In this document: piece by piece, positions 510-59,555 of the stretch | Layout: each line of letters starts with the position of its first letter | Numbering within the stretch: the stretch's first letter is position 1 | The notes under the pieces: generated by a model | The model's database searches: none | What the model saw: the letters and a program-made list of their open reading frames with translations, nothing else | What the model was told of the DNA's origin: nothing | Assembly: GCA_021295715.1 (NCBI GenBank) | Contig: JAGWBV010000005.1 | Location: 2,534-66,533, forward strand | Origin: Candidatus Poribacteria bacterium | GTDB taxonomy: Bacteria; Poribacteria; WGA-4E; WGA-3G | Direction of reading: 5' to 3' | DNA: 64,000 nt | Made by a program: the position numbers and the translations under genes

Positions 510-1063
510 TGAAGGATGAGAAAAATTTAGAAGAGGGATCTTACATTGACGCAAAAGGGCGCACACGCTGGCATCAAAACGATGAAATTGCGCTCAAATT
601 CTTGGAACTTCATACCTTTCTGATTATTGCCGACTATCCAGAAAGCCACGCCTCACGATACCCATGGTTGGCGAATTACATCTCTCGGTTTCCGGAACCG
701 ATGTCGGACCTCATCGCACAGGGACGGTTAATAGAGGAAATTCCAGCGGCTGGCGAAGTGGTAGCAAAAATGGTTGAGGAATTTCTGGACACGGGGACAA
801 GTGCCAAGTTGGAGGAGTTCGCCGGTGATACACCACGAACGGTTGTGGAGCTTGTGCCTGTTCCTGGACTCGGTGCCAAAACAATTAAGCGACTCTACGA
901 GGAAGTCGGTGTGGATAGCCTTGTCTCGCTCCGAACAGCGATCAATGAAGGGAAACTCAAGGGTTTTAAAGGCATCGGTAAGAAGACGTTGGAAAAGATT
1001 GAGGCATATCTTGATACAGCATTATCCTCACCAGCGATGTCTAACATGAAAAAAAAGCAATAG
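509..1063 (+). CDS. Helix-hairpin-helix protein resembling the N-terminal 8-kDa/HhH part of family X DNA polymerases, with no catalytic or PHP domain
   Basis: GTG 509 overlaps the WD40 stop by 1 nt and lies 7 nt after GGAGG. HhH motifs are PGLGAKTIKRLY and GFKGIGKKTLEKI. The ORF track start at 467 is probably too early. Confidence 0.5.
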   Translation: MKDEKNLEEGSYIDAKGRTRWHQNDEIALKFLELHTFLIIADYPESHASRYPWLANYISRFPEPMSDLIAQGRLIEEIPAAGEVVAKMVEEFLDTGTSAKLEEFAGDTPRTVVELVPVPGLGAKTIKRLYEEVGVDSLVSLRTAINEGKLKGFKGIGKKTLEKIEAYLDTALSSPAMSNMKKKQ

Positions 1064-1065
1064 GA

Positions 1066-1206
1066 GGAAGTTGGGACGAAACATCAGGGGTTTGGTGGAA
1101 AAAAGTAAACCCAAGTGCGTAGCTCGTAATGAAACGGAGAGCGGGCTTCAGAACGGAACATCAAAGTTCAAATCGATGTTGTTTAACCGCAAGGAAAATT
1201 AGAAAA
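1066..1206 (+). repeat. Leader repeat copy 1 (long form), ending 5 nt before ATG 1207
   Basis: Near-identical to 2664-2841. The core TAGCTCGTAATGAAAyGGAGAGCGG ... CCGCAAGGAAAAtTAgAAAA is shared with 9003-9128, 10962-11061 and 59430-59555. Confidence 0.8.
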
Positions 1207-1683
1207 ATGGCAAATTCATTGACAACGGGTGAAATGGTTGATGGTAAGAAGCATGGGTATTGGGTTACCTATTACGCGAATGGATTTAAGCGGAGCGAAG
1301 GTCGGTACATCGCTGGCAAGAAAGAAGGACCCTGGATCAATTATCACAAAAATGGGAACAAGGCGGGTGAATCCTTTTTCCGCGATGGAAAATACGAGGG
1401 GCCTTGTTTCACCTATTATGAAAATGGAAACCTGAGATCCAGTGGGGTCTTTCCGAAACATGTCGGCAAATCCTATGATGGCAAAAAGGAGGGTCCGTTT
1501 TACAATTATGAAGCCGATGGCGAGACGGTGTGGCTAATTATAACTTACAAAAAAGGCGGTAGCCGTGCGAAACCGGATGAATATCCACTCGGTGTCTGCG
1601 ACGTTTGCGGCGAGGTGAGACGCTTGGCATGGAAGGATGAATGTCCGAAATGCGGTGCTGAACTCGATAATATTGCTTTGTAG
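1207..1683 (+). CDS. MORN-variant repeat protein (YwqK-like) with C-terminal CxxC...CxxC zinc ribbon
   Basis: Repeated GKKHGYW / GKKEGPW / GKYEG / GKKEGPF units. C-terminus is CDVCGE...CPKCG. ATG 1207 follows AAGGA in the leader repeat. Paralog of 2842-3309. Confidence 0.7.
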   Translation: MANSLTTGEMVDGKKHGYWVTYYANGFKRSEGRYIAGKKEGPWINYHKNGNKAGESFFRDGKYEGPCFTYYENGNLRSSGVFPKHVGKSYDGKKEGPFYNYEADGETVWLIITYKKGGSRAKPDEYPLGVCDVCGEVRRLAWKDECPKCGAELDNIAL

Positions 1684-1847
1684 GTAGGTTTAGAGTATAA
1701 TCTTAACAACGGAAAGGTAGCAAGCCTGATCCAAGTGTAATATGGGTAACAACCTCCAGAAATGTTTCCACACGATACAGAGTGCTTTGTCTATCACGTG
1801 AATATTTTACCAACTATAGGCTATAGGATAAAAAAGGGGTAAAAAGG

Positions 1848-2621
1848 ATGAGAGTTATAGGTGCTTTTATCACTATGACGGTTCTCTTTACTGCAGGGAT
1901 ATGGGTTCAGGAAAGCAGGTCGAAAATTGACCCAGAGACCCTTATGGGAATGTGGCTTTTTGATCACGGAAAGGGGAATGTGGTTAAGGATTCCTCAGCG
2001 AATGGGAATGATGGGGAGATTGTTGATGCAAAACGGGTCGACGGGAAGGAAGGCATGGGCATCGAATTTGACGGAGCCAGTCATGTGGTTATCCCAGCGA
2101 GTAAGACCACCGATGACTTCCTCGACGGATTTACGTATCTACTCTGGGCGAAACCGCTTCGGAATCCTTCCGGTCCGCACGTGCGACTCATAGAAAGGGA
2201 TTGGCACAATCCAAACATTCTTATCGGTCCAACCGACTTTTATGGCAGTTTCCTCAAAGGTGGCGGAATAGATAATAGTCAAATCCGGGGTGGCACTTGG
2301 GAGATGGACGAGTGGAGTTTTGTCGCCTTAACACACGACGGTAAGACGCTTATCCTCTATGTTGATGGCGAAGCCGTTGCGGATTTAGGTGTCGGAAACC
2401 CGGATTTCAGTCAGCAGCACGATAGTGGCTCAATCTGGTTAACCCGCTGGAAAGGTGGAGCGGGGTGGGACTTCGCTGGGGTCCTTGACGAGGTCGCTAT
2501 TTTCAATACTGCCCTCGGTGAAGATGATCTCAATGCCATTATGGAAAAAGGACTTGAGAAGGCACTGTCCGTTTCCCCAATTGATAGATTGACAACAACT
2601 TGGGGAAATATAAAAAGGTAG
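1848..2621 (+). CDS. Secreted LamG / concanavalin-A-like lectin domain protein
   Basis: Signal peptide present. Typical LamG-jellyroll strings: DSSANGNDGEI, FDGASHVVIP, LTHDGKTLILYVDGE, GVLDEVAIFNTAL. Confidence 0.75.
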   Translation: MRVIGAFITMTVLFTAGIWVQESRSKIDPETLMGMWLFDHGKGNVVKDSSANGNDGEIVDAKRVDGKEGMGIEFDGASHVVIPASKTTDDFLDGFTYLLWAKPLRNPSGPHVRLIERDWHNPNILIGPTDFYGSFLKGGGIDNSQIRGGTWEMDEWSFVALTHDGKTLILYVDGEAVADLGVGNPDFSQQHDSGSIWLTRWKGGAGWDFAGVLDEVAIFNTALGEDDLNAIMEKGLEKALSVSPIDRLTTTWGNIKR

Positions 2622-2663
2622 GAGCGATCTCCGAATCGCGACTTAATCTTAAAGCCAACAGAA

Positions 2664-2841
2664 GGAACTTGGGACGAGACCTCAGGGGTTTGGTGGAAAA
2701 AGTAAACCCAAGTGCGTAGCTCATAATGAAATTATGCCTTGAATGGCATAATTTGTCTTTGCTTTACATTTGGAGAGCGGATTTGAGAATGGAACGTCAA
2801 AGTTCAATCCCATTTTGTTTACCCGCAAGGAAAAGTTAAAA
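2664..2841 (+). repeat. Leader repeat copy 2 (long form), with a 39-nt insertion carrying a TTATGCC/GGCATAA hairpin
   Basis: Aligns with 1066-1206 on both sides of an insertion at about 2732-2770. Ends at ATG 2842. Confidence 0.8.
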
Positions 2842-3309
2842 ATGGCAAAATCACTTACAGATGGTGAAATGCTCAATGGCAAGAAGCACGGCTATTGGAC
2901 CACCTATTACGCCAATGGATTTAAGCGCAGCGAAGGTCGCTACATTGAAGGGAGAAAAGAAGGGCTTTGGATCCAGTACCACAAAAACGGGAACAAGGCA
3001 AGCGAAGCCTCCTTTCGCGATGGCAAGAACGAAGGCGACTATGTGTGCTATTACGAGAACGGGAACCGAAAATGGGGCGGTCCGTATCGAGAACACGATG
3101 GCAGCTCCGCCGATGGCAGAAAAGAAGGGGTCTGGCTCTGTTACGAGGAGGATGGCGAGACAGTGTGGCGCATCATCACCTATAAGAAAGGTGGGAGTCG
3201 TGCGAAACCGGATGAATATCCGCTCGGTGTCTGTGATGTGTGTGGCGAAGGTAAACGCTCAACGTGGAAGGATACCTGTCCACAATGCGGAACGGGGATT
3301 GCTGAATAA
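2842..3309 (+). CDS. MORN-variant repeat protein with C-terminal zinc ribbon (paralog of 1207-1683)
   Basis: MAKSLTDGEMLNGKKHGYW aligns with MANSLTTGEMVDGKKHGYW. Same CDVCGE...CPQCG end. The TTG 2770 start in the ORF track reads through the leader repeat. Confidence 0.7.
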   Translation: MAKSLTDGEMLNGKKHGYWTTYYANGFKRSEGRYIEGRKEGLWIQYHKNGNKASEASFRDGKNEGDYVCYYENGNRKWGGPYREHDGSSADGRKEGVWLCYEEDGETVWRIITYKKGGSRAKPDEYPLGVCDVCGEGKRSTWKDTCPQCGTGIAE

Positions 3310-3392
3310 GTTACCAGAAATTCTGAAGTTTTTTATTTGAATCAGGTTTCAATGGGTGCATAAAGAGACCTATGGAAACCGAGGAAAAGTAA

Positions 3393-5846
3393 TTGGAAAC
3401 AGAATCAGTATTTTGGCGCGCTTTGGTGTTATTGGTGGCATTTTTTGCTTTACAATTTCCAAGGGCAGTCGTAGCTGAAGCGGAAGAATCCGATCACAGA
3501 GTTGCGACGGCTGCCCGCATTAAAGGCGCGCCCCCCCAATTAGACGGTGTTTTAGATGACGACATCTGGAAGACCGCGCCCCTCCACGAAGGCTTCCGTC
3601 AGCGCGATCCCGATGAAGGGAAACCCGCTACCCAACGCACGACTTTCCAAGTTGTATATGACAATGAGGCGGTCTATTTTGCTGTCATGTGTTATGACGA
3701 AGAACCCGAAAAAATTGTTTCCCGCCTCGTCAGACGAGATGATTTCGTTGAATCCGATAAAGTCCAGATTCTCCTTGATCCCCACTACAATCGACAGCGA
3801 GCCTTCTCATTTACTATCTATCCATCTGGCTCTGTCATAGATGGCATTACTGGAGGTAACGGATGGAATGGCTGGAACAACGCTTGGGACGGTGTGTGGG
3901 ACGCAAAAACTCAAATTCACAAAAATGGGTGGGCAGTGGAATGTAAGATCCCGTTTTACATGTTTCGCTTTTCTCCAAAAGATAAATACACGTGGGGGCT
4001 ACAAGTAGAGCGCGAGATTAGCCGCAGAAAAGAGCGTGCTCACTGGCGTTTAATTAAAAAGGGGGATCCGGGGTGGCTATCGCATTTTGGGGACCTGATA
4101 GGGATTGAGGATATCAAACCTTCTCGTCATTTGGAATTGATACCCTATACAATGGGCAGGACAACGCTGAACAGTAAAGCGGATTTGTGGGGCAATGTTG
4201 GTGGCGATGTCCAATATGGCATCACTTCTGGCATTACGCTCAATGCCACGGTGAATCCTGACTTTGGACAGGTAGAGGCCGACCCTGCGACTTTAAATCT
4301 TTCTGCTTATGAGGAGTTTTTCGAGGAACGGAGACCCTTTTTTGTCAAAGGCTCATCCATTTTTAACTTCGGAGAGGGAGAAAATCAATTCTTTTACTCG
4401 CGGCGAATCGGACGACAGCCCGGGCATTTTGGGATTCCAGACGGGACGACTGAACTGAGTCGTCCGGAAGCAACAACGATTCTGGGTGCCGCCAAAATCG
4501 TCGGGAGAACCAACAGCAAGACTTCTTTCGGTATCATGGAGGCTGTTACCGCCCCAGGGTATGCACAGATTCAGGAAAAAGGCAAGACGCGCGATTACCT
4601 CATTGAGCCGCTGACAAATTACTTTGTGGGTCGAGTGACACAAGACATCCTTGAAGGGAATTCTCGCGTCGGACTGATAACAACATCGGTGAATCGACGT
4701 GCCTCCAACGCGGCGTATGTCGGTGGACTGGACTGGGACTTGAGGTTTGCGAAGGAGCGGTACAAGATAAGTGGGATGGTGGCAGCGAGCCAAGCGGGAA
4801 AAGTTGAGGCACGCAAGTCGGGTTACCTTGCCCATCTTCAATTTGATAAACAGGGTGGATGGTGGCGACTTCATACCGAGTTTAATGTTCGCTCCCCAGA
4901 CGTAGATATAAATGACATAGGGTATACGCAGCGCGGCGATATGATGCGGTGGTTCTATGACTTCATCGTTAAAAAAGAGCAACCCTTTAGCATTTTCCGA
5001 GAAGTCACTTTCGGGCTCTACGGTTGGCGGGAATGGAACTACGATGGCGTTAGCATCGATCGCTATTCCGAGATATGGACAGATGGTAAACTGAAGAACT
5101 ATTGGGAGTATGACCTGTGGGTTGGACGGAATTTGGAATCGTTTAGGGACGAGGATGTCCGGCGCGGTGGGACGTTGATTAAGAATCCTGCGGGTTGGTG
5201 GATTTTTAGCCGACTTTCTACCGACAGTCGTAAAATGGTTCAACTTGAACTGAATCCGATCTTCGCATGGGATGACGATACCAAGAGTTCTGAAAAGGAA
5301 GTCAGTCTTCGTCTGAACATTCGTCCTGCGTCGAACATTGAACTGAGCATCGGACCGATGTATCGTTATCGAATTTACGATGCCCAGTGGGTCGGATTAG
5401 TTGAGGAAAACGTCAATGGACAAATCGAAAAACACTACGTCTATGGAGAATTAACGAGTCAAACACTTGACTTTACGACGCGCGCGAATATCAGTTTTAC
5501 CCCGACGTTGAGTCTTCAATTCTATGTTCAGCCGTTCATTACTGTCGGAGACTATGGTAACTTCAAAGAGTTAGTCGAGCCGCGGTCTTATCAGTTCAAA
5601 CCGTATCCGCTGAAACGCAACCCTGATTTCCACATGCGTTCGTTGCGAGGCAACACCGTGCTTCGTTGGGAGTTTCGTCCGGGAAGTACGCTGTTCTTGG
5701 TTTGGTCTCAGTCGCGTGCAGTCGAGTTAGAGGATGTGGGCGCAGCCGACCTTGAGTTTCGACCTGTGCATCGTTTGAGAGACAGTTTCACGGATCCTGG
5801 GAAGAACATCTTCCTGATTAAGTGTCGGTATTGGTTTGGAATTTAA
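3393..5846 (+). CDS. Large secreted or outer-membrane protein, CBM9-like N-terminal domain plus DUF5916-like body
   Basis: Signal peptide present. The string PPQLDGVLDDDIWKTAPLHEGFRQRDPDEG...VVYDNEAVYFAV is typical of this family. Long beta-rich body ends in aromatic-rich WFGI. TTG start. Confidence 0.55.
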   Translation: METESVFWRALVLLVAFFALQFPRAVVAEAEESDHRVATAARIKGAPPQLDGVLDDDIWKTAPLHEGFRQRDPDEGKPATQRTTFQVVYDNEAVYFAVMCYDEEPEKIVSRLVRRDDFVESDKVQILLDPHYNRQRAFSFTIYPSGSVIDGITGGNGWNGWNNAWDGVWDAKTQIHKNGWAVECKIPFYMFRFSPKDKYTWGLQVEREISRRKERAHWRLIKKGDPGWLSHFGDLIGIEDIKPSRHLELIPYTMGRTTLNSKADLWGNVGGDVQYGITSGITLNATVNPDFGQVEADPATLNLSAYEEFFEERRPFFVKGSSIFNFGEGENQFFYSRRIGRQPGHFGIPDGTTELSRPEATTILGAAKIVGRTNSKTSFGIMEAVTAPGYAQIQEKGKTRDYLIEPLTNYFVGRVTQDILEGNSRVGLITTSVNRRASNAAYVGGLDWDLRFAKERYKISGMVAASQAGKVEARKSGYLAHLQFDKQGGWWRLHTEFNVRSPDVDINDIGYTQRGDMMRWFYDFIVKKEQPFSIFREVTFGLYGWREWNYDGVSIDRYSEIWTDGKLKNYWEYDLWVGRNLESFRDEDVRRGGTLIKNPAGWWIFSRLSTDSRKMVQLELNPIFAWDDDTKSSEKEVSLRLNIRPASNIELSIGPMYRYRIYDAQWVGLVEENVNGQIEKHYVYGELTSQTLDFTTRANISFTPTLSLQFYVQPFITVGDYGNFKELVEPRSYQFKPYPLKRNPDFHMRSLRGNTVLRWEFRPGSTLFLVWSQSRAVELEDVGAADLEFRPVHRLRDSFTDPGKNIFLIKCRYWFGI

Positions 5847-5873
5847 TCCTTTTCATGCCTGAAAAAATAAACC

Positions 5874-5902
5874 TTGACAGGTAATGTGGAAATTGGTAAT
5901 AT
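5874..5902 (+). promoter_or_regulatory. Sigma-70-like promoter, TTGACA-17-TAATAT
   Basis: TTGACA at 5874-5879 and TAATAT at 5897-5902. Lies about 240 nt upstream of ATG 6144. Confidence 0.4.
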
Positions 5903-6143
5903 AATGTGAGTTTGACATAAACATTTGGAAAATTATCTCTGGGAAATCGTTAGTTTTATCAAATTCGTTTCACCTTTGTGAGATTATGCACCCTTTCCAC
6001 CCTAAAATTGTGTCTTTAATAATCAGAGGGTTCTTTTTTAACTTCTCTTACGTCGAATTCACGTTGATAATATAAATGAGAGAAAAATCGGATGTAACAA
6101 CACCTTAAAGCGCGAATGCTTAACTACATAGGAGGAGCGTAAC

Positions 6144-6926
6144 ATGAAATCGCGCCGAATACCTTTCGTATGGATGGTATCGCTTGTCATACACGTCTGT
6201 CTCGCAGTCGTTGTAGGGTATGTCGCCATCTCATCTCAACCACAGAAAGCACAAGATACTATTGATCTGAGTTTCTTTATCCTTACACCACCCCAAGCAG
6301 CAAAAAGGGATGTTATTGAGAAACCAGCCGTCGTAACAACCCCTGTTCCAGATTTGAGAGTCGTTCCGCAAACTGAGGCGACGCAGCGTCGGACGACAGT
6401 CGCACGCGCGGCGAGATCGTCCTCGACTGCAGCACCTGTGGTGTCACTCACGGCGAGCGCGCCCGCTGCGCCAAGAGGACAGCAAATCAAAGTTGCGAGT
6501 GCGTCCCCTGTGATCCAGCATACTGCGCACCCGCTGTCAACAGACGCAAAACTCCCAACAACATCAGATGGATTACCCACCGCAGGCTTGCCCAGTGGCG
6601 GGGCAATTACGGATGGTATAGGCACAGGTATTGGTGACGGTTTAGGTAGCGGTACCGGACGTGGAACTTTTGGTTCAGGATCCGATCTTGGACAAGGACG
6701 GACGCAAAGCCGTGGCAGTCTGAACTCACTCGTAGCGGGGGCTGGTGCTGCAAATATCAACGCATCCCTGTCGAATGTCGAAAAGAATATGGTTCTCGGT
6801 AATGGTGTCCCACAACTTCCGAAGGGGAGTCCAGGTGCCATCATTCAAGGTCGCGGAACAGAGATTATTGGAAGACTCAATCTCGTTCGTCTCGATGATC
6901 CATTGCATCCGAACCTCGATATATGA
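6144..6926 (+). CDS. Membrane-anchored protein with a long Pro/Thr/Ala/Gly-rich linker; ends at a TGA that is in frame with the next ORF
   Basis: GGAGG lies before ATG 6144. One N-terminal TM helix, then low-complexity sequence. Stop TGA 6924-6926 is in the same frame as 7014-7721 with no intervening stop. Confidence 0.55.
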   Translation: MKSRRIPFVWMVSLVIHVCLAVVVGYVAISSQPQKAQDTIDLSFFILTPPQAAKRDVIEKPAVVTTPVPDLRVVPQTEATQRRTTVARAARSSSTAAPVVSLTASAPAAPRGQQIKVASASPVIQHTAHPLSTDAKLPTTSDGLPTAGLPSGGAITDGIGTGIGDGLGSGTGRGTFGSGSDLGQGRTQSRGSLNSLVAGAGAANINASLSNVEKNMVLGNGVPQLPKGSPGAIIQGRGTEIIGRLNLVRLDDPLHPNLDI

Positions 6927-7013
6927 GGCAGCGGCATCGGACATCTCCGATTCGGGGCAGGTCTGCCCTATTTAGTCAAGTCGCTGAATGCAGAAACAGG
7001 TATCGTAACCCAA

Positions 7014-7721
7014 ATGGTTGACGCCGTCCAAATTACGGATGCAGCGTTTCTTGAGTCACCGGTTATCTTTATGGAGCCGGTTCCCAAATCCTCAGTGCAA
7101 CTCCAGAACGGGTTGCTGGGTGGTGGCAATATATGGAATGTCAGTGGGGATCGCCCTTCTTTCGGTTATACCGATCGGGAGGCACAGCGAATTCGCGAAT
7201 ATGTCATCAATCGCGGTGGGTTTATCTATATGCCGACACACGGAAACACGGAATTGGCAATGCAACCTGCTCTGCGGATCTTGCGCCAAATTCTTCCTGA
7301 ATACCACCTCACGACGATTCCTCACGACCACGAGATTTACAACAGTTTCTATGAGTTGAGCGGGCCGCTCCGATTTCCTGTTCGGAAAATTGGGTCTACC
7401 GTTCTCCATCACGGTCCCTACCGTCAGTTACAAGGTGTCTTCATTGATGATCGGTTAGCTGTTCTTGTTGATACGGAAGCGATGATACATGTGATGGATG
7501 GTGCTGTTCAGAAGCCTTTCTTCGGTCACTATCAAGACCGGAATAGAATCTTAGATGAGTTCGCACCAGCTGCTGCACGACAACTCGTTAATATCGTCGT
7601 TTACGCGGTGACACACGGAAACATCTCGGATTACAGTAACTACATTCCGGCAAATGCTCTCGCCGATGGAGAGGGAGATGTTGCCCCGAAAAAGGCACCG
7701 AGTGCCGCCAGTCGACTGTAA
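7014..7721 (+). CDS. DUF4159-like domain protein, possibly the C-terminal part of a single 6144-7721 product
   Basis: REAQRIREYVINRGGFIYM and LPEYHLTTIPHDHEIY resemble the DUF4159 core (family recalled from memory). No obvious SD precedes ATG 7014. The frame is open back to 6927. Confidence 0.45.
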   Translation: MVDAVQITDAAFLESPVIFMEPVPKSSVQLQNGLLGGGNIWNVSGDRPSFGYTDREAQRIREYVINRGGFIYMPTHGNTELAMQPALRILRQILPEYHLTTIPHDHEIYNSFYELSGPLRFPVRKIGSTVLHHGPYRQLQGVFIDDRLAVLVDTEAMIHVMDGAVQKPFFGHYQDRNRILDEFAPAAARQLVNIVVYAVTHGNISDYSNYIPANALADGEGDVAPKKAPSAASRL

Positions 7722-8005
7722 GAATTCTCGTGCGAAGCCGCGCATAACTATCCATGAAGAATAAGCTGCGTCAGTCCTTTGACGTGGCTTTTTTTTGCCT
7801 CTTTGCATCATCTCCACAGACGAAAATATTGATTTTCGAGTTCTACCAGCGCGCTCGTTTGTCCTCTAATCCCGATTACATCAATATAGTGTTTTCCAAA
7901 GATTCCTATCGAGGAACCCACTCATCTTAACTTGAACCAATTTCGCTGGGAAACTTGGCAAATCCCACGAAAATAGGCGAGATGATGGCAAAATCGCGTT
8001 TCTAT

Positions 8006-8034
8006 TTGACAAATCGAGGGTAGATATGTATAAT
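8006..8034 (+). promoter_or_regulatory. Perfect-consensus sigma-70 promoter, TTGACA-17-TATAAT
   Basis: TTGACA at 8006-8011 and TATAAT at 8029-8034, upstream of the rhodanese gene. Confidence 0.55.
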
Positions 8035-8122
8035 ATAAACAAGAATCGTCCTTTTAAGGCACAGTTATATGCCCATAGGAATAGGCCTTAACAAGAATAC
8101 ACGAAGGAGACTTTATACAAAA

Positions 8123-8971
8123 ATGGCTGATTACGCAAATTCTGATGTTTTGGTAACGACGGAATGGGTCGCTGCACACGGTGGTGATGCAGGCATCCGA
8201 CTCCTTGAAGTCGATGTGGATACCTCAGCATACGGTGAAGGACATATCGCTGGGGCAGTCGGACTCAATTGGGAAACGCAATTGTGCGACCAAGTTCGAC
8301 GTGATATCCTCACGAGAGAACAGTTCGAGGCACTCTGCAATGACAGCGGTATCGCCAACGATACTACTGTTATTTTTTATGGAGATAACAATAACTGGTT
8401 CGCAACGTATGCCTTGTGGCAATTCCGCTATTACGGACACGATGAAAGTCTATTGAAAGTGATGAACGGTGGTCGTCAAAAATGGGTCGATGAAGGCAGA
8501 GAGCTTGTCACTGACGTTCCAGATCATTCGAGCACAGGATATCAGGCGAAATTCCCCGACGACAATGTTCGTGCTACAGCGGGTACGGTTCGCGAAACAT
8601 TAGGGCAAGGCGTTGTTAACCTTGTCGATGTCCGTTCGCCTGCTGAGTTCACTGGTGAAGTTATCGCACCTCCCGGTATGAGCGAGACAGCGCAACGCGG
8701 TGGACATATCCCCGACGCAGCGAATATCCCGTGGGCAACAGCAGTCGCTGAAGACGGCACCTTTAAGTCTCACGACGAACTCCAAGCCATCTACGGTGGT
8801 GCGGGTGTTGATGAGAGTAAGGAAACAATCGCTTATTGCCGTATTGGTGAACGCTCATCGCATACTTGGTTTGTGCTGAAATATCTACTCGGTTATGAAA
8901 AGGTCCGTAATTACGATGGCAGTTGGACAGAATGGGGCAATCTGGTCGGAGCCCCTATTGCACGCGATTAA
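8123..8971 (+). CDS. Thiosulfate/3-mercaptopyruvate sulfurtransferase (tandem rhodanese domains)
   Basis: MADYANSDVLVTTEWV N-terminus, GHIAGA, active-site loop YCRIGERSSH, DGSWTEWG. Confidence 0.85.
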   Translation: MADYANSDVLVTTEWVAAHGGDAGIRLLEVDVDTSAYGEGHIAGAVGLNWETQLCDQVRRDILTREQFEALCNDSGIANDTTVIFYGDNNNWFATYALWQFRYYGHDESLLKVMNGGRQKWVDEGRELVTDVPDHSSTGYQAKFPDDNVRATAGTVRETLGQGVVNLVDVRSPAEFTGEVIAPPGMSETAQRGGHIPDAANIPWATAVAEDGTFKSHDELQAIYGGAGVDESKETIAYCRIGERSSHTWFVLKYLLGYEKVRNYDGSWTEWGNLVGAPIARD

Positions 8972-9002
8972 TCGAATAGTTGTTATCGGTTAAGAGATTT
9001 TC

Positions 9003-9128
9003 ATCTAACACAGTTTACCTCTTAAGATAGCGTCAAAATTCGCAGCTCGTAATGAAATGGAGAGCGGATTTAAGGGACGCATTTGAGAGTGCTAACGCTC
9101 GTGATTACTCCGCAAGGTAAAATTAAAA
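9003..9128 (+). repeat. Leader repeat copy 3 (short form), ending at GTG 9129
   Basis: CTAACAC..TTTACCTCTTA..ATAGCGTCAAAA..AGCTCGTAATGAAATGGAGAGCGGAT...TCCGCAAGGTAAAATTAAAA aligns with 59430-59555. Confidence 0.75.
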
Positions 9129-9422
9129 GTGCCTAAATTTGTTTCTGCCCATGCTATTGCCTGCATGACACGCCAAGACGTTTCACGATTGCTAAAGCGT
9201 TTCAGAGAAGCAGAAAACGCCGATGTGAGCAATATCCGAGTCTTGTGCGATACGCTGTCAGGACGCATGGTCTGTGAATGGGAAGCACGCGACAGTATCA
9301 CCTTAATCGAGTGGTTGAAAAAGTGCAATGTCCAGATACGCGGAACGGGCGAATGGCTCATGGCAGTCCAGTATGAGTCAATCGACGATGAACTCGTCGC
9401 ACCTCCGCGGCACACTGCTTAG
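9129..9422 (+). CDS. Small protein, DUF4242-like
   Basis: 97-aa ORF with GTG start directly after the leader repeat. The MPKF... start and overall pattern resemble DUF4242. This is a weak call made from memory. Confidence 0.35.
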   Translation: MPKFVSAHAIACMTRQDVSRLLKRFREAENADVSNIRVLCDTLSGRMVCEWEARDSITLIEWLKKCNVQIRGTGEWLMAVQYESIDDELVAPPRHTA

Positions 9423-9455
9423 GTCCTTGGTAGAGGACTTGACCGCACAAAACCG

Positions 9456-10283
9456 ATGTACTACTTAACCCGACAAACGGCGTTTGAAGCATCACATTAC
9501 AACCGTATCCCTGAACTGAGCGATGCAGAGAACTTTGAGTTGTTTGGTGCCGCCGCAAATCCAAATAGCCACGGGCATAACTATGTGCTTGAGGTCATGG
9601 TGAAAGGCAGTGTAGATGTAGATGATGGTATGGTCATCAATCTGGTGACTTTGGACGTGTTGTTGAAGAGCGAAGTGCTTGCCAATTACGATCACAAACA
9701 TCTAAACCGTCAACATCCGGTATTCGCAAAGAACTCGCAATTACAACCGACGTGTGAGAACATCTCTATAGAGATTTGGCAGCGGCTTGATCCTTCTTTG
9801 CCGGAGGGAATGTTGCACAGGGTGCGCCTCTACGAAAGTGCGGCAAATTTTGCAGACTATTATGGGGAAGGACCTATGGTTTATCTTACGAAAGTCTACG
9901 ATTTTAGTGCCGCCCACCGTTTGCACAGCCATGCACTGAGTGATGAAGATAACCGGGATATTTTCGGAAAGTGCAATAATCCGGCTGGGCATGGACATAA
10001 CTACGTACTCGAAGTTACCGTAAAGGGAGACGTAGATGCGAGGACCGGATTGGTTGCTGGTTTGAATCTTCTTGACGAAGTCGTTCAAAAACAGGTTTAT
10101 GCGCGTTTCGACTATAAACACCTGAATCTCGATACTACTGAGTTTAAGGTGCTCAATCCGACGTCGGAGAACTTCGTCAAAGTGCTTTGGGACGTGTTAG
10201 AACCGAATTTGCGCCCAGTGGTTCTACACCGCCTTCGCTTGCGAGAGACACCCAAAAACCATTTCGACTACTACGGCGAGTAA
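9456..10283 (+). CDS. Tandem-domain 6-pyruvoyl-tetrahydropterin synthase / QueD-family (COG0720) protein
   Basis: Two T-fold halves. Half 1 has FGAAANPNSHGHNYVLEV and half 2 has FGKCNNPAGHGHNYVLEV. Both have YDHKHLN / FDYKHLN. Confidence 0.85.
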   Translation: MYYLTRQTAFEASHYNRIPELSDAENFELFGAAANPNSHGHNYVLEVMVKGSVDVDDGMVINLVTLDVLLKSEVLANYDHKHLNRQHPVFAKNSQLQPTCENISIEIWQRLDPSLPEGMLHRVRLYESAANFADYYGEGPMVYLTKVYDFSAAHRLHSHALSDEDNRDIFGKCNNPAGHGHNYVLEVTVKGDVDARTGLVAGLNLLDEVVQKQVYARFDYKHLNLDTTEFKVLNPTSENFVKVLWDVLEPNLRPVVLHRLRLRETPKNHFDYYGE

Positions 10284-10343
10284 GCCACCTTCTGCCCAGT
10301 AGGCATATATAAACACAGCCCATTGGAGGCATATTTTAACATA

Positions 10344-10922
10344 ATGGAGTTTAATCAGGCTAACGTTACCCCTGAGTTGGAAGGACTTTACACAAAAATC
10401 CTTCAAAGCTTAGGTGAAGATCCGAGTCGTCAAGGCTTAGTGAAAACACCATACCGTGCCGCGAAAGCGATGGAATTTTTGACGAGCGGTTATCATCAAA
10501 GCGTTGATGATATTCTGAATGGAGCCATCTTTGATGAGGATTATGACGAAATGGTGATTGTGAAAGAGATTGAGTTTTACAGTCTCTGTGAGCACCATAT
10601 CCTACCGTTTTGGGGTAAATGTCACGTTGGGTATCTCCCGCGGAAACAGATTGTGGGTTTGAGTAAGATCCCGCGCATTGTAGATATGTTTTCCCGTCGG
10701 TTGCAAGTTCAGGAGCGTCTCACGCGTGAGATTGCCGAATCACTCGAAACCGCCCTCGACCCCCGCGGTGTCGCTGTCGTGATGGAGGGACAACACCTGT
10801 GCATGATGGCACGCGGCGTTGAAAAGCAAGCACCGAAAATGACAACAAATGTCATGCGGGGGACGTTCCGTGAGGATAGTTCAACGCGCGCGGAGTTTCT
10901 GAGGTGTATTCAAGTATCCTAA
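10344..10922 (+). CDS. folE: GTP cyclohydrolase I
   Basis: [55 protein letters not shown]. Start is ATG 10344 or TTG 10323. Confidence 0.9.
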
Positions 10923-10961
10923 TATATTTCTCGGACTTTCTCATTTACTTCTCTTATTTTT

Positions 10962-11061
10962 TATCAAAACCGTAAGCCTGTAACGTAGTGGAGGGCGGCT
11001 TTTAGGAAAGGCGTGTGAAAATTTCAACCTACGTCAGGAACCCGCAAGGTATAATTAAAAA
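10962..11061 (+). repeat. Leader repeat copy 5 (degenerate), ending at ATG 11062
   Basis: ATCAAAACCGTAAGCCTGTAACGTAGTGGAGGGCGG...CCCGCAAGGTATAATTAAAAA aligns with the core of copies 3 and 4, with substitutions. Confidence 0.55.
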
Positions 11062-11802
11062 ATGGCAGAAATAGGAAGACTCGACGGTAAAGTCGTGGTG
11101 ATTACTGGAGCGTCAAAGGGGATTGGTAAGGCAACCGCTTTCGCTTTCGCAGCAGCAGGTGCGAAGGTTGTGCTCGCTGCCCGAACACGTGAAACACTCG
11201 AACAGGTCGCAGTGGAACTTAGAGAAGTAGCGGTTGCTAACCCCGATTCCATACTCGCTGTTCCAACAGACGTTACCAACGTCGATGCTGTGAAGCAACT
11301 TATCCACCGGACATTAGATGTTTACCAACACGTGGATATCCTAATCAACAATGCGGGGATCGGTCATTTCGGACCCGTGATCGATTTCGAGTCTGACGAC
11401 TGGGATGCGGTACTCAATTCCAACTTAAAGGCTGTTTATCTCTGCGCAAAGTACGCGCTTCCGTCCATGTTGGAACGAGGCAGTGGACAGATTGTTAATG
11501 TGCTTTCAATCGCCGCGAAAGTTGCGTTTGAAGCTTCAGGTGCGTATTGTGCCGCGAAAGCAGGGGCGTTAGCACTCACAAAAGTTTTAGCCAGTGAAGT
11601 CCGCGAACAAAATATTCGAGTTACCGCTGTTTTACCGGGATCAGTACATACTCCATTTTGGGACGGCGTTCCAGAACACCCAGACTTTGAACAGATGTTA
11701 ACACCGGAACATGTCGCTGATACAATTGCTTCCATTTGTCAGCAACCGCCGGGTATGGTGACTGAAGAGATCGTTGTAATGCCGCCCCTCGGAATTCTCT
11801 AA
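11062..11802 (+). CDS. Classical short-chain dehydrogenase/reductase; candidate pteridine/sepiapterin reductase by context only
   Basis: TGASKGIG, NNAG and catalytic YCAAK motifs. Confidence 0.8.
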   Translation: MAEIGRLDGKVVVITGASKGIGKATAFAFAAAGAKVVLAARTRETLEQVAVELREVAVANPDSILAVPTDVTNVDAVKQLIHRTLDVYQHVDILINNAGIGHFGPVIDFESDDWDAVLNSNLKAVYLCAKYALPSMLERGSGQIVNVLSIAAKVAFEASGAYCAAKAGALALTKVLASEVREQNIRVTAVLPGSVHTPFWDGVPEHPDFEQMLTPEHVADTIASICQQPPGMVTEEIVVMPPLGIL

Positions 11803-42500: not shown

Positions 42501-44021
42501 TTAGCGCAGCTCATCTACGATCTAAAACAAGCGAATCCACGGGCAAAGGTCGCTGTAAAACTGGTATCCGAATTTCTCGTTGGAACGATTGCATCGGGGG
42601 TAGCAAAGGGCTACGCCGATGTAATACAAATCAGTGGGCATGAGGGAGGTACTGGGGCATCCCCGCTCAGTTCCATTAAGAACGCTGGGACCCCTTGGGA
42701 ACTCGGACTTGCTGAAACACAGCGGGCACTTGTGACGAATGAATTGCGGGATCGTGTCGTGTTACGGGCTGACGGTGGGATGCGTTCTGGACGTGACATT
42801 GTTATTGCGGCAATGTTAGGGGCAGAAGAATATGGATTTGGAACGATAGCGATGGTCGCGACGGGGTGTGTAATGGCACGCCAATGCCACTTAAATACGT
42901 GTCCGGTTGGTGTAGCTACCCAGGATCCAGCACTCCGTGCCAAATATCCCGGCACCCCCGAAATGGTGGTGAATTTCATGCTCGGGGTGGCGAATGAAGT
43001 CCGAGCTATTCTTGCCAACCTCGGTCACAGGAACCTCAACGATATTATCGGGCGCCCGGAGTTACTTCAACCGATCGATCTCGCAGATTACCCGAAAACT
43101 GAAACGCTGGATTTGAGTGAAATTCTGACCCCTGCCGATCCAACTGGAACGCAGCCGCGTTACCATCTACAAAATCGAAACGATCGGGACGACATCTCTC
43201 TTGACGATCAGATACTGAAGGATGCTGAGGAAGCAATTTCGCAGAAAACAACTATCCAACTCTCTTATGCCATCCGGAATACGCACCGAACAGTGGGTGC
43301 AAAGTTGGCCGGTGAAATTGCGGCGCGCTATGGTGATGCGGGCTTACCTGATAGGACGATCCAGTGCGACTTTAGGGGGAGTGCAGGACAGAGTTTCGGT
43401 GCTTTCTGTATCAGCGGCGTACAATTCGCGTTGACAGGCGAGGCTAATGACTATGTGGGTAAGGGCATGGCAGGCGGGGAAATTATTATTAAACCGGCGC
43501 CGACTGCACAGTTCCCAACTTATGAAAATACAATCATTGGAAATACAGTGTTGTATGGTGCCACAGGCGGTACGCTTTATGCAGCGGGAAGAGCTGGTGA
43601 ACGGTTCTGTGTCCGAAACAGCGGGGCAACTGTTGTCATTGAAGGCGTGGGGGATCACGGTTGTGAATACATGACCGCCGGAACAGCCGTAATTCTCGGC
43701 GAGACAGGCAGAAACTTTGGTGCCGGAATGACCGGTGGTATTGCTTATGTTCTCGACGAAAAACAACAGTTCGAGAGGAAGTACAACTCGGATTGGGTGA
43801 AGTTAGAAAAGGTAACGAGTGAGACAGATGTTAAGAGTCTGATGGCACTTATACAAAATCACGCGGCTTATACCGGCAGTGAACACGCCGAGAAAATTCT
43901 CACCAATTGGGAGGATGTTCTTCCGCATTTTTGGAAGGTGGTAACACCACCACCGCCACCACTGCCAGCACCTGTCCAGTTGAAAAGAAGAGCCGCGGGA
44001 CGTAGAAGTCGTAAACGCTAA
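39525..44021 (+). CDS. gltB: Glutamate synthase large subunit
   Basis: The DACGVGF N-terminal nucleophile is read directly. The 1498-aa length and overall domain order (amidotransferase, central, FMN and C-terminal beta-helix regions) fit GltB from memory. Start is TTG 39525 or ATG 39531. No gltD lies downstream. Confidence 0.92.
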   Translation: MQMYNELNEKDACGVGFVANRFGNRSHDIIKMATQAVTNLTHRGAVAADAKTGDGAGILTQIPGKIFQKELQKLGVHLDSINDMGVGMIFLPRHDRDAQARGRAIVEETLQQYGVPFLGWRSVPQDFSALGAKALETLPEIQQVLVGRPEQLADDAFEQRLYLICKELEHRVTAALDEFHIASFSHRTIVYKGLLVAPQLTQFYPDLKDPDFQAALAVFHQRYSTNTSSTWMLAQPFHTLAHNGEINTLMGNQNWMRARESDLQSPLWGEDIRKLIPIINPHGSDSMSLDNVLELLTHSGRGILHAMMCLIPEAYEQIPDMPDELKACYEYLSCVSEPWDGPAAVAFTDGVVVGASLDRNGLRPARYKVTEDGTVVMGSEVGIIELDDSCVVEKGRLGPGQMIAVDTAQGKLLKDVEIKHNVAKQKPYAEWVKKGSVTLPTEKDGAYVTTDAVPEQLSTYQKAFGYMTEDIERFIKPMVSEAKEAVGSMGDDTPPSVISRHPRLLYSYFKQRFAQVTNPPIDSIRERLVMSLTTHLGKQYSLLTETPEHARLIRLHSPILTNTDLQTLRELDISDFQIETLPVCFPVVSGKQGLEGALETLCQRASEAIDRGVTLLVLSDKEVNPDLAPIPMALAIGAVHHHLIREGKRMRASLIAETGDAREEHHFAVLLGYGATAINPYLAFSTILQLAEDGEFAELAASEAIDTYKATVEKGILKIMAKMGISTVSSYHGAQIFEALGINSTVIDKCFTGTTSRLSGIGFAEIAAETLHFHTKAFSGSEGDASLEEAGYFRFRRNGEFHAFNPTVFKSLHRFVKGGKPEDYEKYADAVESGEPSSLRDLLAFKPSTPIPIEEVEPAEDIVRRFTTGSMSFGALSRETHETLAIAMNRLGAKSGSGEGGESTTRFKPQPNGDLASSAIKQVASGRFGVTPTYLISAKELEIKMAQGSKPGEGGQIPGHKVTAEIASLRHSVPGVPLISPPPHHDIYSIEDLAQLIYDLKQANPRAKVAVKLVSEFLVGTIASGVAKGYADVIQISGHEGGTGASPLSSIKNAGTPWELGLAETQRALVTNELRDRVVLRADGGMRSGRDIVIAAMLGAEEYGFGTIAMVATGCVMARQCHLNTCPVGVATQDPALRAKYPGTPEMVVNFMLGVANEVRAILANLGHRNLNDIIGRPELLQPIDLADYPKTETLDLSEILTPADPTGTQPRYHLQNRNDRDDISLDDQILKDAEEAISQKTTIQLSYAIRNTHRTVGAKLAGEIAARYGDAGLPDRTIQCDFRGSAGQSFGAFCISGVQFALTGEANDYVGKGMAGGEIIIKPAPTAQFPTYENTIIGNTVLYGATGGTLYAAGRAGERFCVRNSGATVVIEGVGDHGCEYMTAGTAVILGETGRNFGAGMTGGIAYVLDEKQQFERKYNSDWVKLEKVTSETDVKSLMALIQNHAAYTGSEHAEKILTNWEDVLPHFWKVVTPPPPPLPAPVQLKRRAAGRRSRKR

Positions 44022-44073
44022 AAACTTAGTTGTGGAATAGGTGTCAACACCTTACTTTTTGGGGTATATTGCC

Positions 44074-44101
44074 AAAAAAGGCAGCCGAAGCTGCCTTTTT
44101 T
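44074..44101. terminator. Bidirectional rho-independent terminator AAAAAA-GGCAGC-cgaa-GCTGCC-TTTTTT (copy 1)
   Basis: Lies 53 nt after the gltB stop. The hairpin is flanked by an A-run and a T-run. Confidence 0.75.
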
Positions 44102-44190
44102 GTGTTAACTGCGTTACAGTTTTCATTCCTCTTCCGGGACCACGAAAGCGATTTCAAGTCCCTCCGTTTTACTGGGGCGTTGTTTCGCTC
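44074..44190 (-). repeat. 117-nt direct-repeat copy 1: terminator plus a relic of the last 21 codons of exbD
   Basis: 113/117 identical to 44291-44407 by manual alignment. The minus strand reads AKQRPSKTEGLEIAFVVPEEE* versus AKQRSSKTEGLEIAFAVSEEE* in the intact gene. Confidence 0.85.
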
Positions 44191-44287
44191 ATTTAAATTA
44201 TTGTTAGTTTTAAAACACCTGAAAGTTTATAAGGTGACGCGTGTTCTTCAGATGGTTCTGCTTACAAGAATACCGATTATTAGATGC

Positions 44288-44318
44288 AAAAAAAAAGGCA
44301 GCCGAAGCTGCCTTTTTT
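44288..44318. terminator. Bidirectional rho-independent terminator (copy 2), serving exbD
   Basis: A9-GGCAGC-cgaa-GCTGCC-T6, 21 nt after the exbD stop on the minus strand. Confidence 0.75.
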
Positions 44319-44339
44319 GTGTTAACTGCGTTGCAGTTT

Positions 44340-44762
44340 TCATTCCTCTTCCGAGACCGCGAAAGCGATTTCAAGTCCCTCCGTTTTACTGGAGCGTTGT
44401 TTCGCTCGTTCCACCACATCAATGACGACACCGTGTTTCGCACGCTTATCTGCCTTGATAATTAGGGTGCTGATCTGGTTTTCATGAGCTGCGATAAAAA
44501 GTTCCATGTCTTCCAGTGTCAACATCTCTTGGTCATCGATCGAAATCCGTCCGTCACCGCTAATGAAGAGGTTATACTTCTTCCGTGTGAACTCGTGCTT
44601 AGTTGCGGAATCGGGTAGGGTGACCGTGAAAGGCGGGGGAACCCGCATGACAGCAGATACCATGAAGAAGATAAGCAACAAAAAGACACAATCGATCATT
44701 GGTGCCATCGGAATGTCATCATCGTCGCCTGTTTTCTTCCGCCGAGACATGTTCAAAGCCAT
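44340..44762 (-). CDS. exbD: ExbD/TolR biopolymer transport protein
   Basis: PMAPMIDCVFLLLIFFMV TM segment and periplasmic domain. Confidence 0.85.
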   Translation of the reverse strand: MALNMSRRKKTGDDDDIPMAPMIDCVFLLLIFFMVSAVMRVPPPFTVTLPDSATKHEFTRKKYNLFISGDGRISIDDQEMLTLEDMELFIAAHENQISTLIIKADKRAKHGVVIDVVERAKQRSSKTEGLEIAFAVSEEE

Positions 44763-44815
44763 CTGAATTCTCCTTCTATAAAGAGTGGAGTGCTATTATC
44801 GTCGCATGAGATAAG

Positions 44816-45268
44816 TCAATCTCTCGCGACAATAGCGAACCCGATTTTATCTATACCTGCTTGTTTTGCTATATCCATCACTTGCACGATCTGTTCATGT
44901 AGCACTTCACGTTCGGATTGGATAATGAGCATACTTGTTGCTTCTTCAGGTGCATTAATGAATCGATTGAACATTTCATCAATCTGGACGACCTCATCGT
45001 TTAGCACCATGGTGCCTCTGTCATCACCGGGTTCCGGGTTTGCGATTCGGACAGTCAACCCTTTCGGTTTATCGGGTGAGGGTTTCCCCGGTGGGGGCAA
45101 CTGTACCCGAAGGCCTGGAATCGGTGAGAAGGTTGTCGATACCATGAAGAAAATCAGGAGCAGGAATACACAATCAATCATAGGTGCCATACTGAGTGTT
45201 GGTGGCTTGCGCTCCCGAATTTTGGTCGCAAGCAGACTCAATTTGACGTCACCGCCGGCTTGTTGCAT
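44816..45268 (-). CDS. exbD: ExbD/TolR biopolymer transport protein (second copy)
   Basis: SMAPMIDCVFLLLIFFMV. Confidence 0.85.
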   Translation of the reverse strand: MQQAGGDVKLSLLATKIRERKPPTLSMAPMIDCVFLLLIFFMVSTTFSPIPGLRVQLPPPGKPSPDKPKGLTVRIANPEPGDDRGTMVLNDEVVQIDEMFNRFINAPEEATSMLIIQSEREVLHEQIVQVMDIAKQAGIDKIGFAIVARD

Positions 45269-45381
45269 TTCAGAATCTCCTTTTGTGTTAATGAGACTAA
45301 GGCTAAGGTGCGAGGACCTGGTAGCCTACAAAGCCTATGAGGAGAGGGCGAGTAAAAGTACCCGCCCGTTCCGTTCCAAGA

Positions 45382-46374: not shown

Positions 46375-46741
46375 TCGTTCTGATCCTCCTTAGGATAACT
46401 TACCAAATACGCAGGCAAGTTTTACAAGTCATCTCATAAGATGTTGTCGGAACTCGTCCAACAACTCAATTTTCCTAACACTTGAGCATTTCAAAAATTA
46501 CAAAGGTTTTTAGGTCAGGTAGGAGCGATCAAAAACCGCACCCACCATTTACAACACCATTTTTGTTAAGAACACCTGAGTGTTTAAGAAGTTACGCGTT
46601 ATATTCAAACCCTACGGAAAATGGAAGCTCAGGTGATATAGCGAGACGCGAAATCGCTAATGGAAGCACGCCATCACGATGATCGTGATCGCGTGACTTC
46701 CGAGGACACGAAGAAATCGTGTCCAGCGATCCAAACATCAC

Positions 46742-59344: not shown

Positions 59345-59429
59345 AATAGTATAGTCCGTAATCTCCAAAGCCGCCCGACCGAACCGCAACGGATAATTAG
59401 TAATCAGTTGTCAGTTAGGAGCAAGTCGT

Positions 59430-59555
59430 CTAACACTTTTTACCTCTTACCATAGCATCAAAACCTATAGCTCGTAATGAAATGGAGAGCGGATATGAGG
59501 AACGCACGTTAAAATTCAAACGCTCGTTGTTCCTCCGCAAGGAAAAATTAAAATT
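59430..59555 (+). repeat. Leader repeat copy 4 (orphan, no downstream plus-strand gene)
   Basis: Aligns with 9003-9128 over its whole length. Its 3' end overlaps the last codons and stop of the minus-strand peptidase gene. Confidence 0.75.

Follow-up and report, generated by a model that had tools for sequence, protein, structure and literature searches.

The Neisseria REP2 repeat (contact-regulated upstream repeat; Morelle et al. 2003) and the similar IR of Borrelia plasmids are intergenic sequences of 120 to 150 bp without terminal inverted repeats (PMC3184786). Both carry internal stem-loops near the 5′ end and lie immediately upstream of unrelated open reading frames (ORFs), with the ribosome-binding site (RBS) fused to the start codon (PMC3184786). 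REP2 occurs in 23 to 26 copies per genome and contains its own promoter and ATG (PMC3184786). Correia in Neisseria, ERIC/IRU in enterobacteria, and BOX in pneumococcus are further short, non-coding repeats, once or still mobile, which lie near genes, are cotranscribed with them, and can alter the expression of their neighbors; REPs (repetitive extragenic palindromes) are G+C-rich palindromes of ~35 nt that usually follow genes, often as inverted pairs (PMC3184786). Here, we analyze a repeat of ~95 to 105 nt (G+C, 35 to 49%) from a 64,000-nt stretch of a Candidatus Poribacteria bacterium genome (GenBank assembly GCA_021295715.1, contig JAGWBV010000005.1, positions 2,534 to 66,533, forward strand; the window in what follows). 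A preliminary description of this DNA had noticed five copies of the repeat and interpreted them as portable gene leaders, an interpretation that our results support in its essentials. Judged by description, REP2 and the Borrelia IR appear to be its nearest known analogues.

Our preferred explanation, to which we assign a probability of about 60% taken as a whole, is that the repeat is a mobile leader cassette, the tail of which would act as the RBS of the downstream gene while a hairpin near its 5′ end would bind a factor.

Distribution and placement of the repeat

A pattern scan over one genome per prokaryotic species found the repeat at no fewer than 120 loci. Among these matches listed, 115 loci are labelled Candidatus Poribacteria, and the remaining ones are four entries named "uncultured bacterium" and one 2.7-kb "Verrucomicrobia" contig; viral contigs scanned for the repeat gave no match. 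The repeat is an interspersed family specific to Poribacteria, an uncultivated phylum of sponge symbionts. Poribacterial loci fetched with the repeat (designated by L-numbers) and the window share 83 to 90% identity. Our covariance model was trained on 147 copies, of which 142 come from other genomes and five are those of the window. On the window it returned exactly five matches of 65.7 to 100 bits, a fit that is partly by construction given their presence in the training set, with a runner-up of 12.9 bits (E = 0.3). The model yielded 212 matches in 775 kb of loci and nhmmer 253 in 994 kb, equivalent to one copy per 7 to 13 kb after exclusion of one fetching match per locus. Extrapolated to genomes of 5 to 6 Mb, rather than counted, this density probably amounts to hundreds of copies per genome. 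The window contains the pattern GGAGRGCGG-N42/43-CCGCAAGG five times, none of 100 dinucleotide shuffles contains it, and the 5′ and 3′ blocks are each likewise far above chance in the window. The repeat is a real feature, well above chance expectation. The five copies, the parts of the flagged copy c3, and a decayed neighbor of c5 are as follows.

1066 to 1206, + strand: copy c1 (core, 1112 to 1206; hairpin H1, 1122 to 1142), with a GGGTTT/AAACCC 5′ module; 92.7 bits; upstream of a MORN_2 protein gene
2664 to 2841, + strand: copy c2, paralogous to c1, with a 38-nt mini-insertion (~2733 to 2770) interrupting its H1 loop; 65.7 bits; upstream of a MORN_2 protein gene
9003 to 9128, + strand: copy c3, made up of 5′ extension, hairpin block, variable middle, 3′ block, and tail; model match at 9035 to 9129, 87.4 bits
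9005 to 9033, + strand: 5′ extension of c3, subfamily-specific and sigma-70-like, with CTAACA (9005 to 9010), 17 nt, and TAGCGT (9028 to 9033)
9045 to 9065, + strand: hairpin H1 of c3, GCUC-GUA-AU-GAA-AU-GGA-GAGC
9068 to 9109, + strand: variable middle of c3, from the alignment (42 to 46 nt), subfamily-defining, with a semiconserved AAAGUUCAAACC box
9110 to 9128, + strand: 3′ block CCGCAAGG and tail WAWAATTAAAA of c3, with AAGG as the presumed Shine-Dalgarno (SD) sequence followed by an A/U spacer
9129 to 9422, + strand: ORF after c3, 97 aa, GTG start, without a Pfam family
10962 to 11061, + strand: copy c4, with H1 at 10976 to 10996 as GCCU..GGGC and a distal C-G pair, and CCGCAAGG at 11042 to 11049; 70.6 bits; upstream of a short-chain dehydrogenase (SDR) gene
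59430 to 59555, + strand: copy c5 (H1, 59470 to 59490); 100 bits; antisense between two − strand genes, Peptidase_MA and Metallophos
59379 to 59403, + strand: CCGAACCGCAACGGATAATTAGTAA, 3′-block remnant of a decayed copy just upstream of c5; weak model match at 59314 to 59403, 11.5 bits, E = 0.79

All five copies are on the + strand at the positions first reported, and the 3′ ends of c1 to c4 run straight into ATG 1207, ATG 2842, GTG 9129, and ATG 11062, also as reported. The fifth calls for a correction: c5 has no + strand gene downstream, and the TTA of its tail is instead the TAA stop codon of the convergent Peptidase_MA gene (59548 to 59550). The MORN_2 pair, the 97-aa ORF, and the SDR gene are indeed unrelated, although the label "DUF4242-like" given to the 97-aa protein found no significant Pfam family behind it. 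Window positions 1054 to 1610 align to both halves of locus L030, so c1 and c2 trace back to one tandem gene-plus-leader duplication and not to independent events. Across the family, 94 distinct downstream proteins belong to 86 Pfam families, and recurring families are mainly orthologues from different genomes.

We then scored placement in ~1 Mb of poribacterial DNA as an ORF of ≥60 aa starting within −6 to +8 of the model end, with the element read in the opposite orientation as the control. Such a start was found for 132 of 246 copies with a 3′ end, compared with 11 of 246 in the inverted control. It falls at offset 0 exactly in 105 of the 132, and the start codon is ATG in 128 (97%); in 79 copies, AAGG and the start codon are 12 nt apart. 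This placement is that of an oriented leader, as first proposed, and not the random one of a MITE (a miniature transposable element with inverted repeats) or REP. Another 36 copies stand as upstream members in head-to-tail arrays of up to four units with a 104-nt period, and in 36 others the start codon is 9 to 40 nt distant, frequently beyond a duplicated 21-nt 3′ block. The gene upstream is codirectional in 98 cases and divergent in 30, with a median gap of 75 nt from its stop codon. Such a ratio is ordinary for bacterial genomes and, together with the gap, indicates that the repeat is not confined to the beginnings of operons. Of the copies that lack a same-strand start, 34 face a long convergent ORF; for 21 of the 34, that ORF ends in a TAA stop that is the complement of the tail TTA. 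Start-codon and convergent-stop junctions together place the right end of the repeat flush with a coding boundary in either orientation, which raises the question of how a repeat finds the boundaries of coding sequences. Two orphan copies (L099, ~277; L088, ~6357) are followed by a conserved 36-codon ORF (MNRYIGRSKAIPI...) in overlap with the convergent gene's 3′ end; this ORF could encode a genuine small protein or mirror conservation of the opposite strand.

The tail and the hairpin

In 632 genes of the same DNA that lack the repeat, AAGG peaks 8 to 12 nt and GGAG 6 to 10 nt before ATG. The AAGG of the repeat, at 12 nt, is inside this natural SD spacing range, and no other SD was seen in the spacer between AAGG and the start codon of repeat-bearing genes. 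The proposal that the element itself supplies an SD-like AAGG and an A-rich spacer is therefore compatible with the geometry of the site. The best evidence for such a role comes from two orthologous sites at which the tail stands alone. In L125, the folE-SDR intergenic region is a 14-nt spacer, TAA-GGAAAATTAAAAAA-ATG, where the window and L124 carry the full repeat; in L103, the site reads TAG-GGTAAAATTAAAAAG-ATG, and its orthologue in L018 carries the full repeat. Both retain GG, the A/T spacer, and ATG, spaced as usual; the stop codon upstream completes AAGG or AGGG, and tail-only matches are rare otherwise. We read these sites as probable deletion derivatives that retain what the gene needs, although the order of events (deletion or a state preceding insertion) could not be established; they suggest that the tail serves as the RBS and that the body is not needed for expression. 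Altogether, the repeat is absent from 7 of 123 orthologous sites. Five of the seven have an ordinary SD-like motif upstream, and the other two are L103, with the tail only, and L024, with a 76-nt spacer and no obvious SD.

The same tail could alternatively belong to a promoter cassette for leaderless mRNAs, in which WAWAAT would be a −10 box and the A of ATG, 7 nt downstream, the transcription start. Hexamer positions 2 (A) and 6 (T) are ~99% conserved, the hexamer-to-ATG distance is fixed at 6 nt, the variants TATAAT and TAAAAT are common, and 97% of the starts are ATG, all as this scheme predicts. Nevertheless, the first hexamer position is A and not T in ~75% of the copies, and our reading of the alignment reveals neither a −35 box nor a TG extension at the right distance, while usual promoter rules seem to apply in this genome, as judged from a canonical TTGACA-17-TATAAT at window positions 8006 to 8034. 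In addition, c3 starts with GTG, upstream array members carry the same tail without ATG after it, and a promoter role does not explain the GG retained at both tail-only sites. We consider leaderless transcription from the tail quite improbable.

A promoter may be sought rather at the other end of some copies. The hexamers of the c3 extension each agree with sigma-70 at 4 of 6 positions, which would place a transcript start just 5′ of the hairpin block, and the same layout, CTAACA-17-TAGCRT, recurs in c5 (59430 to 59435 and 59453 to 59458). The arrangement in c3 scored below the threshold of our promoter scan of the window, and a promoter role of the c3/c5 extension can only be suggested from the letters. 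The preliminary description had assigned this CTAACAC..TTTACC extension to copies 3 to 5; it is real in c3 and c5 but marks a small subfamily and not the family, for the pattern TAACA, 16 to 18 nt, TAGNNT, 7 to 10 nt, AGCYCG was found in 1 of 126 other loci. Family-wide conservation begins only ~14 nt 5′ of GTAGCTC, and a search for a conserved promoter upstream of the unit detected no information content past −14.

The 5′ block folds into hairpin H1, which consists of a basal 4-bp stem, a symmetric and nearly invariant 3×3 internal loop (G·A, U·G, A·G), two further base pairs, and a GNA triloop. Across 76 distinct variants, 95.8% of the cells are paired, and compensatory changes occur at four of the six pairs, one of which is seen as U-A, C-G, A-U, and G-C. 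Cells with double changes number 61, compared with 19.2 ± 4.6 in column shuffles (0 of 500 reach 61) and at most 5 with slid partners. A U-A to C-G exchange in the distal helix distinguishes c4 from the orthologous L124 copy. Variation inside 23 orthologue groups was seen in 11 of 138 pair-groups for the H1 pairs, in 9 of 207 columns for the H1 loop, and in 228 of 966 columns for the middle; H1 thus evolves ~5 times more slowly than the middle of the repeat at orthologous sites. H1 is constrained at resident copies unless gene conversion mimics such constraint.

Pairing elsewhere in the repeat is of a different kind. The GCGG/CCGC stem, proposed in the preliminary description to close around an internal hairpin, with the reservation that covariation was not demonstrated, finds no support: it is invariant in the main, with 11 uncompensated and no compensated changes in 181 copies, and the real covariation lies in H1. 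RNAalifold returned only this invariant 4-bp stem. No run of at least 3 columns in the middle is paired in ≥70% of the copies (z, approximately −0.4), and only a 3-bp, subfamily-linked helix covaries there. A pseudoknot between the H1 loop (AAAUG) and CAUUU 5′ of the 3′ block was discarded for its uncompensated changes (e.g., A-C in 58 copies), as was an extended CC-GCAA-GG tetraloop hairpin, the flanking positions of which do not covary. Nor does the ATG inside H1 open a conserved upstream ORF (MKWRAD...): its frame stays open across the middle in 83 of 139 copies, compared with 109 of 139 for another frame, its stops fall at many positions, and length variants of 58 to 63 nt break it.

A position upstream of genes, a conserved covarying hairpin, an overlap of 2 nt by which H1 and the GCGG/CCGC pairing could in principle alternate, and tandem copies, as with some riboswitches, are properties that a ligand- or signal-sensing RNA gating access to the SD (a riboswitch or thermosensor) would have. 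A pathway-specific metabolite riboswitch is nonetheless unlikely in view of the 86 Pfam families downstream, which share no common pathway, and any sensor of this type is hard to reconcile with a density of one copy per 7 to 13 kb, with the absence of the body from some orthologous sites, and with the lack of a stable or covarying aptamer-sized fold, of loop-to-3′ pseudoknot covariation, and of an Rfam match. We rate it as very improbable. Rfam 15 gave no match at the gathering score on the window and 18 loci, and relaxed scans of window positions 900 to 11200 (E ≤ 10) and of 8 loci (E ≤ 5) gave only chance matches (mir-2, Xist), none of them on a repeat copy; the 26 poribacterial loci scanned included contigs of the 2013 single-cell genome WGA-3G. 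Our literature search found nothing on poribacterial non-coding repeats. A conserved non-coding RNA motif from Poribacteria, called "Poribacteria-1", was reportedly described by Weinberg et al. in 2017, and its identity with the repeat could not be checked. The name does not appear in the main text of that article (NAR 45:10811), as distinct from its supplement. Given the Rfam 15 result, "Poribacteria-1" is not this repeat if it is in Rfam; otherwise, it is either different or outside Rfam.

Least probable of all the readings that we considered is a tRNA-derived, short interspersed element (SINE)-like sequence copied via an RNA intermediate. UAGCUC...GAGC resembles a tRNA D-arm and GUUCAAACC a T-loop, in tRNA order and with tRNA-like spacing on our reading of the alignment, and an A-rich 3′ end, 5′-truncated copies, and one junction in TTAAA(A) would fit such an origin. 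The resemblance goes no further, for acceptor and anticodon stems cannot be drawn and the distal helix and internal loop of H1 are unlike a D-arm. ARAGORN reported no tRNA-like gene in the window, the Rfam tRNA model did not match at E ≤ 10, no reverse transcriptase partner is known, and no target-site duplication was seen.

Mobility and meaning

Empty orthologous sites, variable arrays, and nested mini-insertions indicate that the family spread by insertion or duplication. The clearest case is c5. Its site is empty in three other species (L121 to L123), where the Peptidase_MA stop and the Metallophos ATG lie 1 to 5 nt apart, whereas the window's clade has ~200 nt inserted antisense, corresponding to c5 and the decayed copy. 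The final residue of the peptidase becomes F instead of T or I, and the right junction of the insertion falls within a native TTAAAT similar to the TTAAAA of the tail. No target-site duplication is visible, in what is the one clean filled/empty pair and one in which the left side is the decayed second copy. The repeat is also absent at the c3 site in L024, where a GGCTGTCGGCT-rich 76-nt spacer is found (L024, 7328 to 7403); the insertion boundaries at the c3 and L031 sites are unreadable, the flanking intergenic DNA being wholly different between genomes. Tandem arrays of 2 to 4 units differ in length between orthologous loci, and some copies are 5′ truncated and start from the ATG within H1. 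The repeat is retained across species-level divergence at 116 of 123 orthologous sites.

The repeat is itself a target. An insertion of 38 to 52 nt, a hairpin followed by a T-run (ATTATGCC..GGCATAAT TTGTCTTTGCTTT), occurs at one point of the H1 loop in several copies and also elsewhere; it is a second, nested mini-repeat family and resembles an intrinsic terminator. A G/T-rich mini-insertion of 22 to 28 nt (GGTTTTTGCTTGGGTGTTTCTTCA) is present in both orientations and at varied positions of the repeat in at least 9 copies upstream of different genes; in L098 it destroys the GCGG block and is absent from the orthologous L031 copy. The sites of both are listed below.

H1-loop mini-insertion: window 2733 to 2770 (c2), L124 ~771 to 818, L070 4158 to 4209, L048 425 to 476, L060 5001 to 5039, L041, and L079
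GGTTTTTGCTTGGGTGTTTCTTCA mini-insertion: L089, L065, L072, L018, L110, L081, L056, and L098 in forward orientation; L004 and L029 in reverse orientation

Other species carry further short repeats at the same intergenic sites (L126, ~730 to 900; L074; L093; and the L024 spacer), such as a CAGGACTT(A/G)CGCAA(T)TTT motif, and several small repeat families seem to have colonized poribacterial intergenic regions.

Mobility of this kind lends itself to an interpretation that largely overlaps our own and differs from it only in denying a host function: a purely selfish MITE- or REP-like DNA repeat, the flush, oriented copies of which would be the survivors that restored an RBS and the hairpin of which would be a single-stranded DNA site for a transposase. 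Insertion polymorphism at orthologous sites, tandem expansion with 5′-truncated copies, subfamilies and nested mini-insertions, and orphan copies with intact hairpins all agree with it, as do the c5 junction in a TTAAAT so like the tail and the 21 of 34 convergent cases in which the right end adjoins the stop codon via the tail TTA. On the other hand, a selfish repeat would not be expected to be kept at 116 of 123 orthologous sites, to evolve ~5 times more slowly in its hairpin and blocks than in its middle at resident copies, or to leave the tail alone at sites where orthologues carry the full repeat. There are also no consistent terminal inverted repeats (none in c3, and in c4 and c5 only A/T low-complexity matches not common to the copies), no target-site duplication at the one clean pair, and no transposase partner identified, a RAYT gene not having been searched for. 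We regard the purely selfish alternative as unlikely.

Under the mobile-cassette explanation, the repeat would spread by insertion or duplication, and its A/T-rich right end would come to adjoin a coding-sequence boundary, most often a start codon. A resident repeat would then be cotranscribed with the downstream gene, and its 3′ block would provide the RBS of that gene, with AAGG ~12 nt from AUG and an A/U-rich spacer in place of a conventional AGGAG. The 5′ block would fold into H1, with its purine-rich internal loop, under purifying selection at resident copies. Most likely, H1 would dock a trans-acting factor, either a posttranscriptional regulator or stabilizer or the machinery that copies the element. 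A bolder and tentative version, which we would not favor at present, makes the repeat a domesticated cassette with H1 as the operator of one global RNA-binding regulator, such that insertions add genes to a phylum-wide posttranscriptional regulon of ~5 to 10% of poribacterial genes. A tblastn search of 1 Mb of poribacterial DNA for CsrA or Hfq genes gave no matches, an uninformative outcome given the sampling.

Several observations weigh against the cassette explanation. Gene conversion among copies, instead of selection, could account for the conservation seen within orthologue groups. Hairpins are intact in 25 of 27 copies without a downstream gene, compared with 81 of 97 gene-linked copies, and intact orphan hairpins are also what recent mobility or gene conversion leads one to expect. 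Copies without a downstream gene make up ~15% of the family. Taken in full, the repeat shows no excess stability over shuffled sequence (mean minimum free energy z of −0.04; −0.43 for the middle). A distance of 12 nt puts AAGG at the long end of the natural spacing range, and the tail-only sites imply that the body is dispensable for the expression of at least some genes. Finally, transcription through the repeat, the use of the tail as an RBS, and a binding partner of H1 are all deduced from DNA.

If the tail is an RBS, one shared, transplantable leader would serve several percent of the genes in this uncultivated phylum of symbionts, which would be an exceptionally large example in nature of modular translation-initiation regions that move from gene to gene and a route to the coregulation of many unrelated genes via one hairpin. 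The repeat would, in that case, also be a practical marker for Poribacteria in metagenomes. Were H1 an operator in addition, a regulon would grow by transposition of a translation-initiation region. It would be a source of gene-calling errors as well, with public callers extending or truncating starts around it. SDR orthologues are called at 230 to 254 aa around the repeat; in L124 (880 to 900), the first 10 SDR codons, including ATG, are deleted right after the repeat tail, and the public call, of 230 aa, starts downstream.

Around the flagged copy, the 97-aa ORF heads a run with genes for 6-pyruvoyl-tetrahydropterin synthase (PTPS) and GTP cyclohydrolase I (folE). From c3 to c4 (window 9129 to 11802), this is a conserved pterin-type cluster of the 97-aa protein, a double-domain PTPS, GTP cyclohydrolase I, and SDR, and three other poribacterial genomes (L124 to L126) have the PTPS, FolE, and SDR genes in synteny. 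The sigma-70 promoter at 8006 to 8034, a perfect consensus (TTGACA, 17 nt, TATAAT), is found upstream of the rhodanese gene located before c3; judging by gene order, c3 and c4 may be inside one transcript with rhodanese, the 97-aa ORF, PTPS, folE, and SDR. Farther along the window (~44000 to 48000), both the sign of the GC skew and the gene orientation (from + to −) switch at ~45 to 47 kb, which may mark converging replication forks (a possible terminus) or a mere strand switch of genes. In L060 (6678 to 8000), a tRNA gene is followed by a 23S rRNA gene, with no 16S rRNA detected in the 6.7 kb upstream, which fits an unlinked arrangement of rRNA genes in Poribacteria.

Comparison with known repeats

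Two classes of mobile DNA do not accommodate the repeat. As to integron attC sites (RYYYAAC...GTTRRRY), ATTTAAC and [A/G]TTAAAA occur in one subfamily only and ~10 nt apart, there is no element-length hairpin, and copies are dispersed among syntenic housekeeping genes. A MITE defined by terminal inverted repeats is likewise rejected for want of such repeats, even though presence/absence polymorphism was found. Like Correia, ERIC, and BOX, the poribacterial repeat is short, non-coding, and dispersed. Those elements, however, have terminal inverted repeats or long palindromes, generate target-site duplications, and occur in both orientations at variable distances from genes, whereas the poribacterial repeat lacks inverted ends, is strongly oriented, and keeps a fixed 12-nt geometry to the start codon. 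With the REP/BIME group (RAYT, IS200/IS605-like), it shares a GTAG directly before the hairpin, maintained pairing, and many copies per genome. It differs in that H1 has only 4+2 bp and a purine-rich loop and is set inside a 100-nt unit ending at start codons, and in that copies lie mostly upstream of genes, in one orientation and in head-to-tail arrays.

The initial view that the repeat belongs to no known riboswitch, REP, or MITE family agrees with the Rfam 15 result but has to make room for the Neisseria REP2 and the Borrelia IR as functional analogues (PMC3184786). The poribacterial repeat is also devoid of inverted ends and located upstream of unrelated ORFs, a likeness of described features and not of compared sequences, and it matches the fusion of RBS and start codon by geometry only. 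Unlike REP2, it has no family-wide promoter, and its conserved unit stops just short of the start codon. Furthermore, it is perhaps ten or more times as abundant, by extrapolation, adjoins convergent stop codons, forms arrays, has a covarying hairpin, and belongs to a different phylum. The poribacterial repeat may be grouped with REP2-like leader repeats, and its scale and the precision with which it meets coding boundaries deserve attention.

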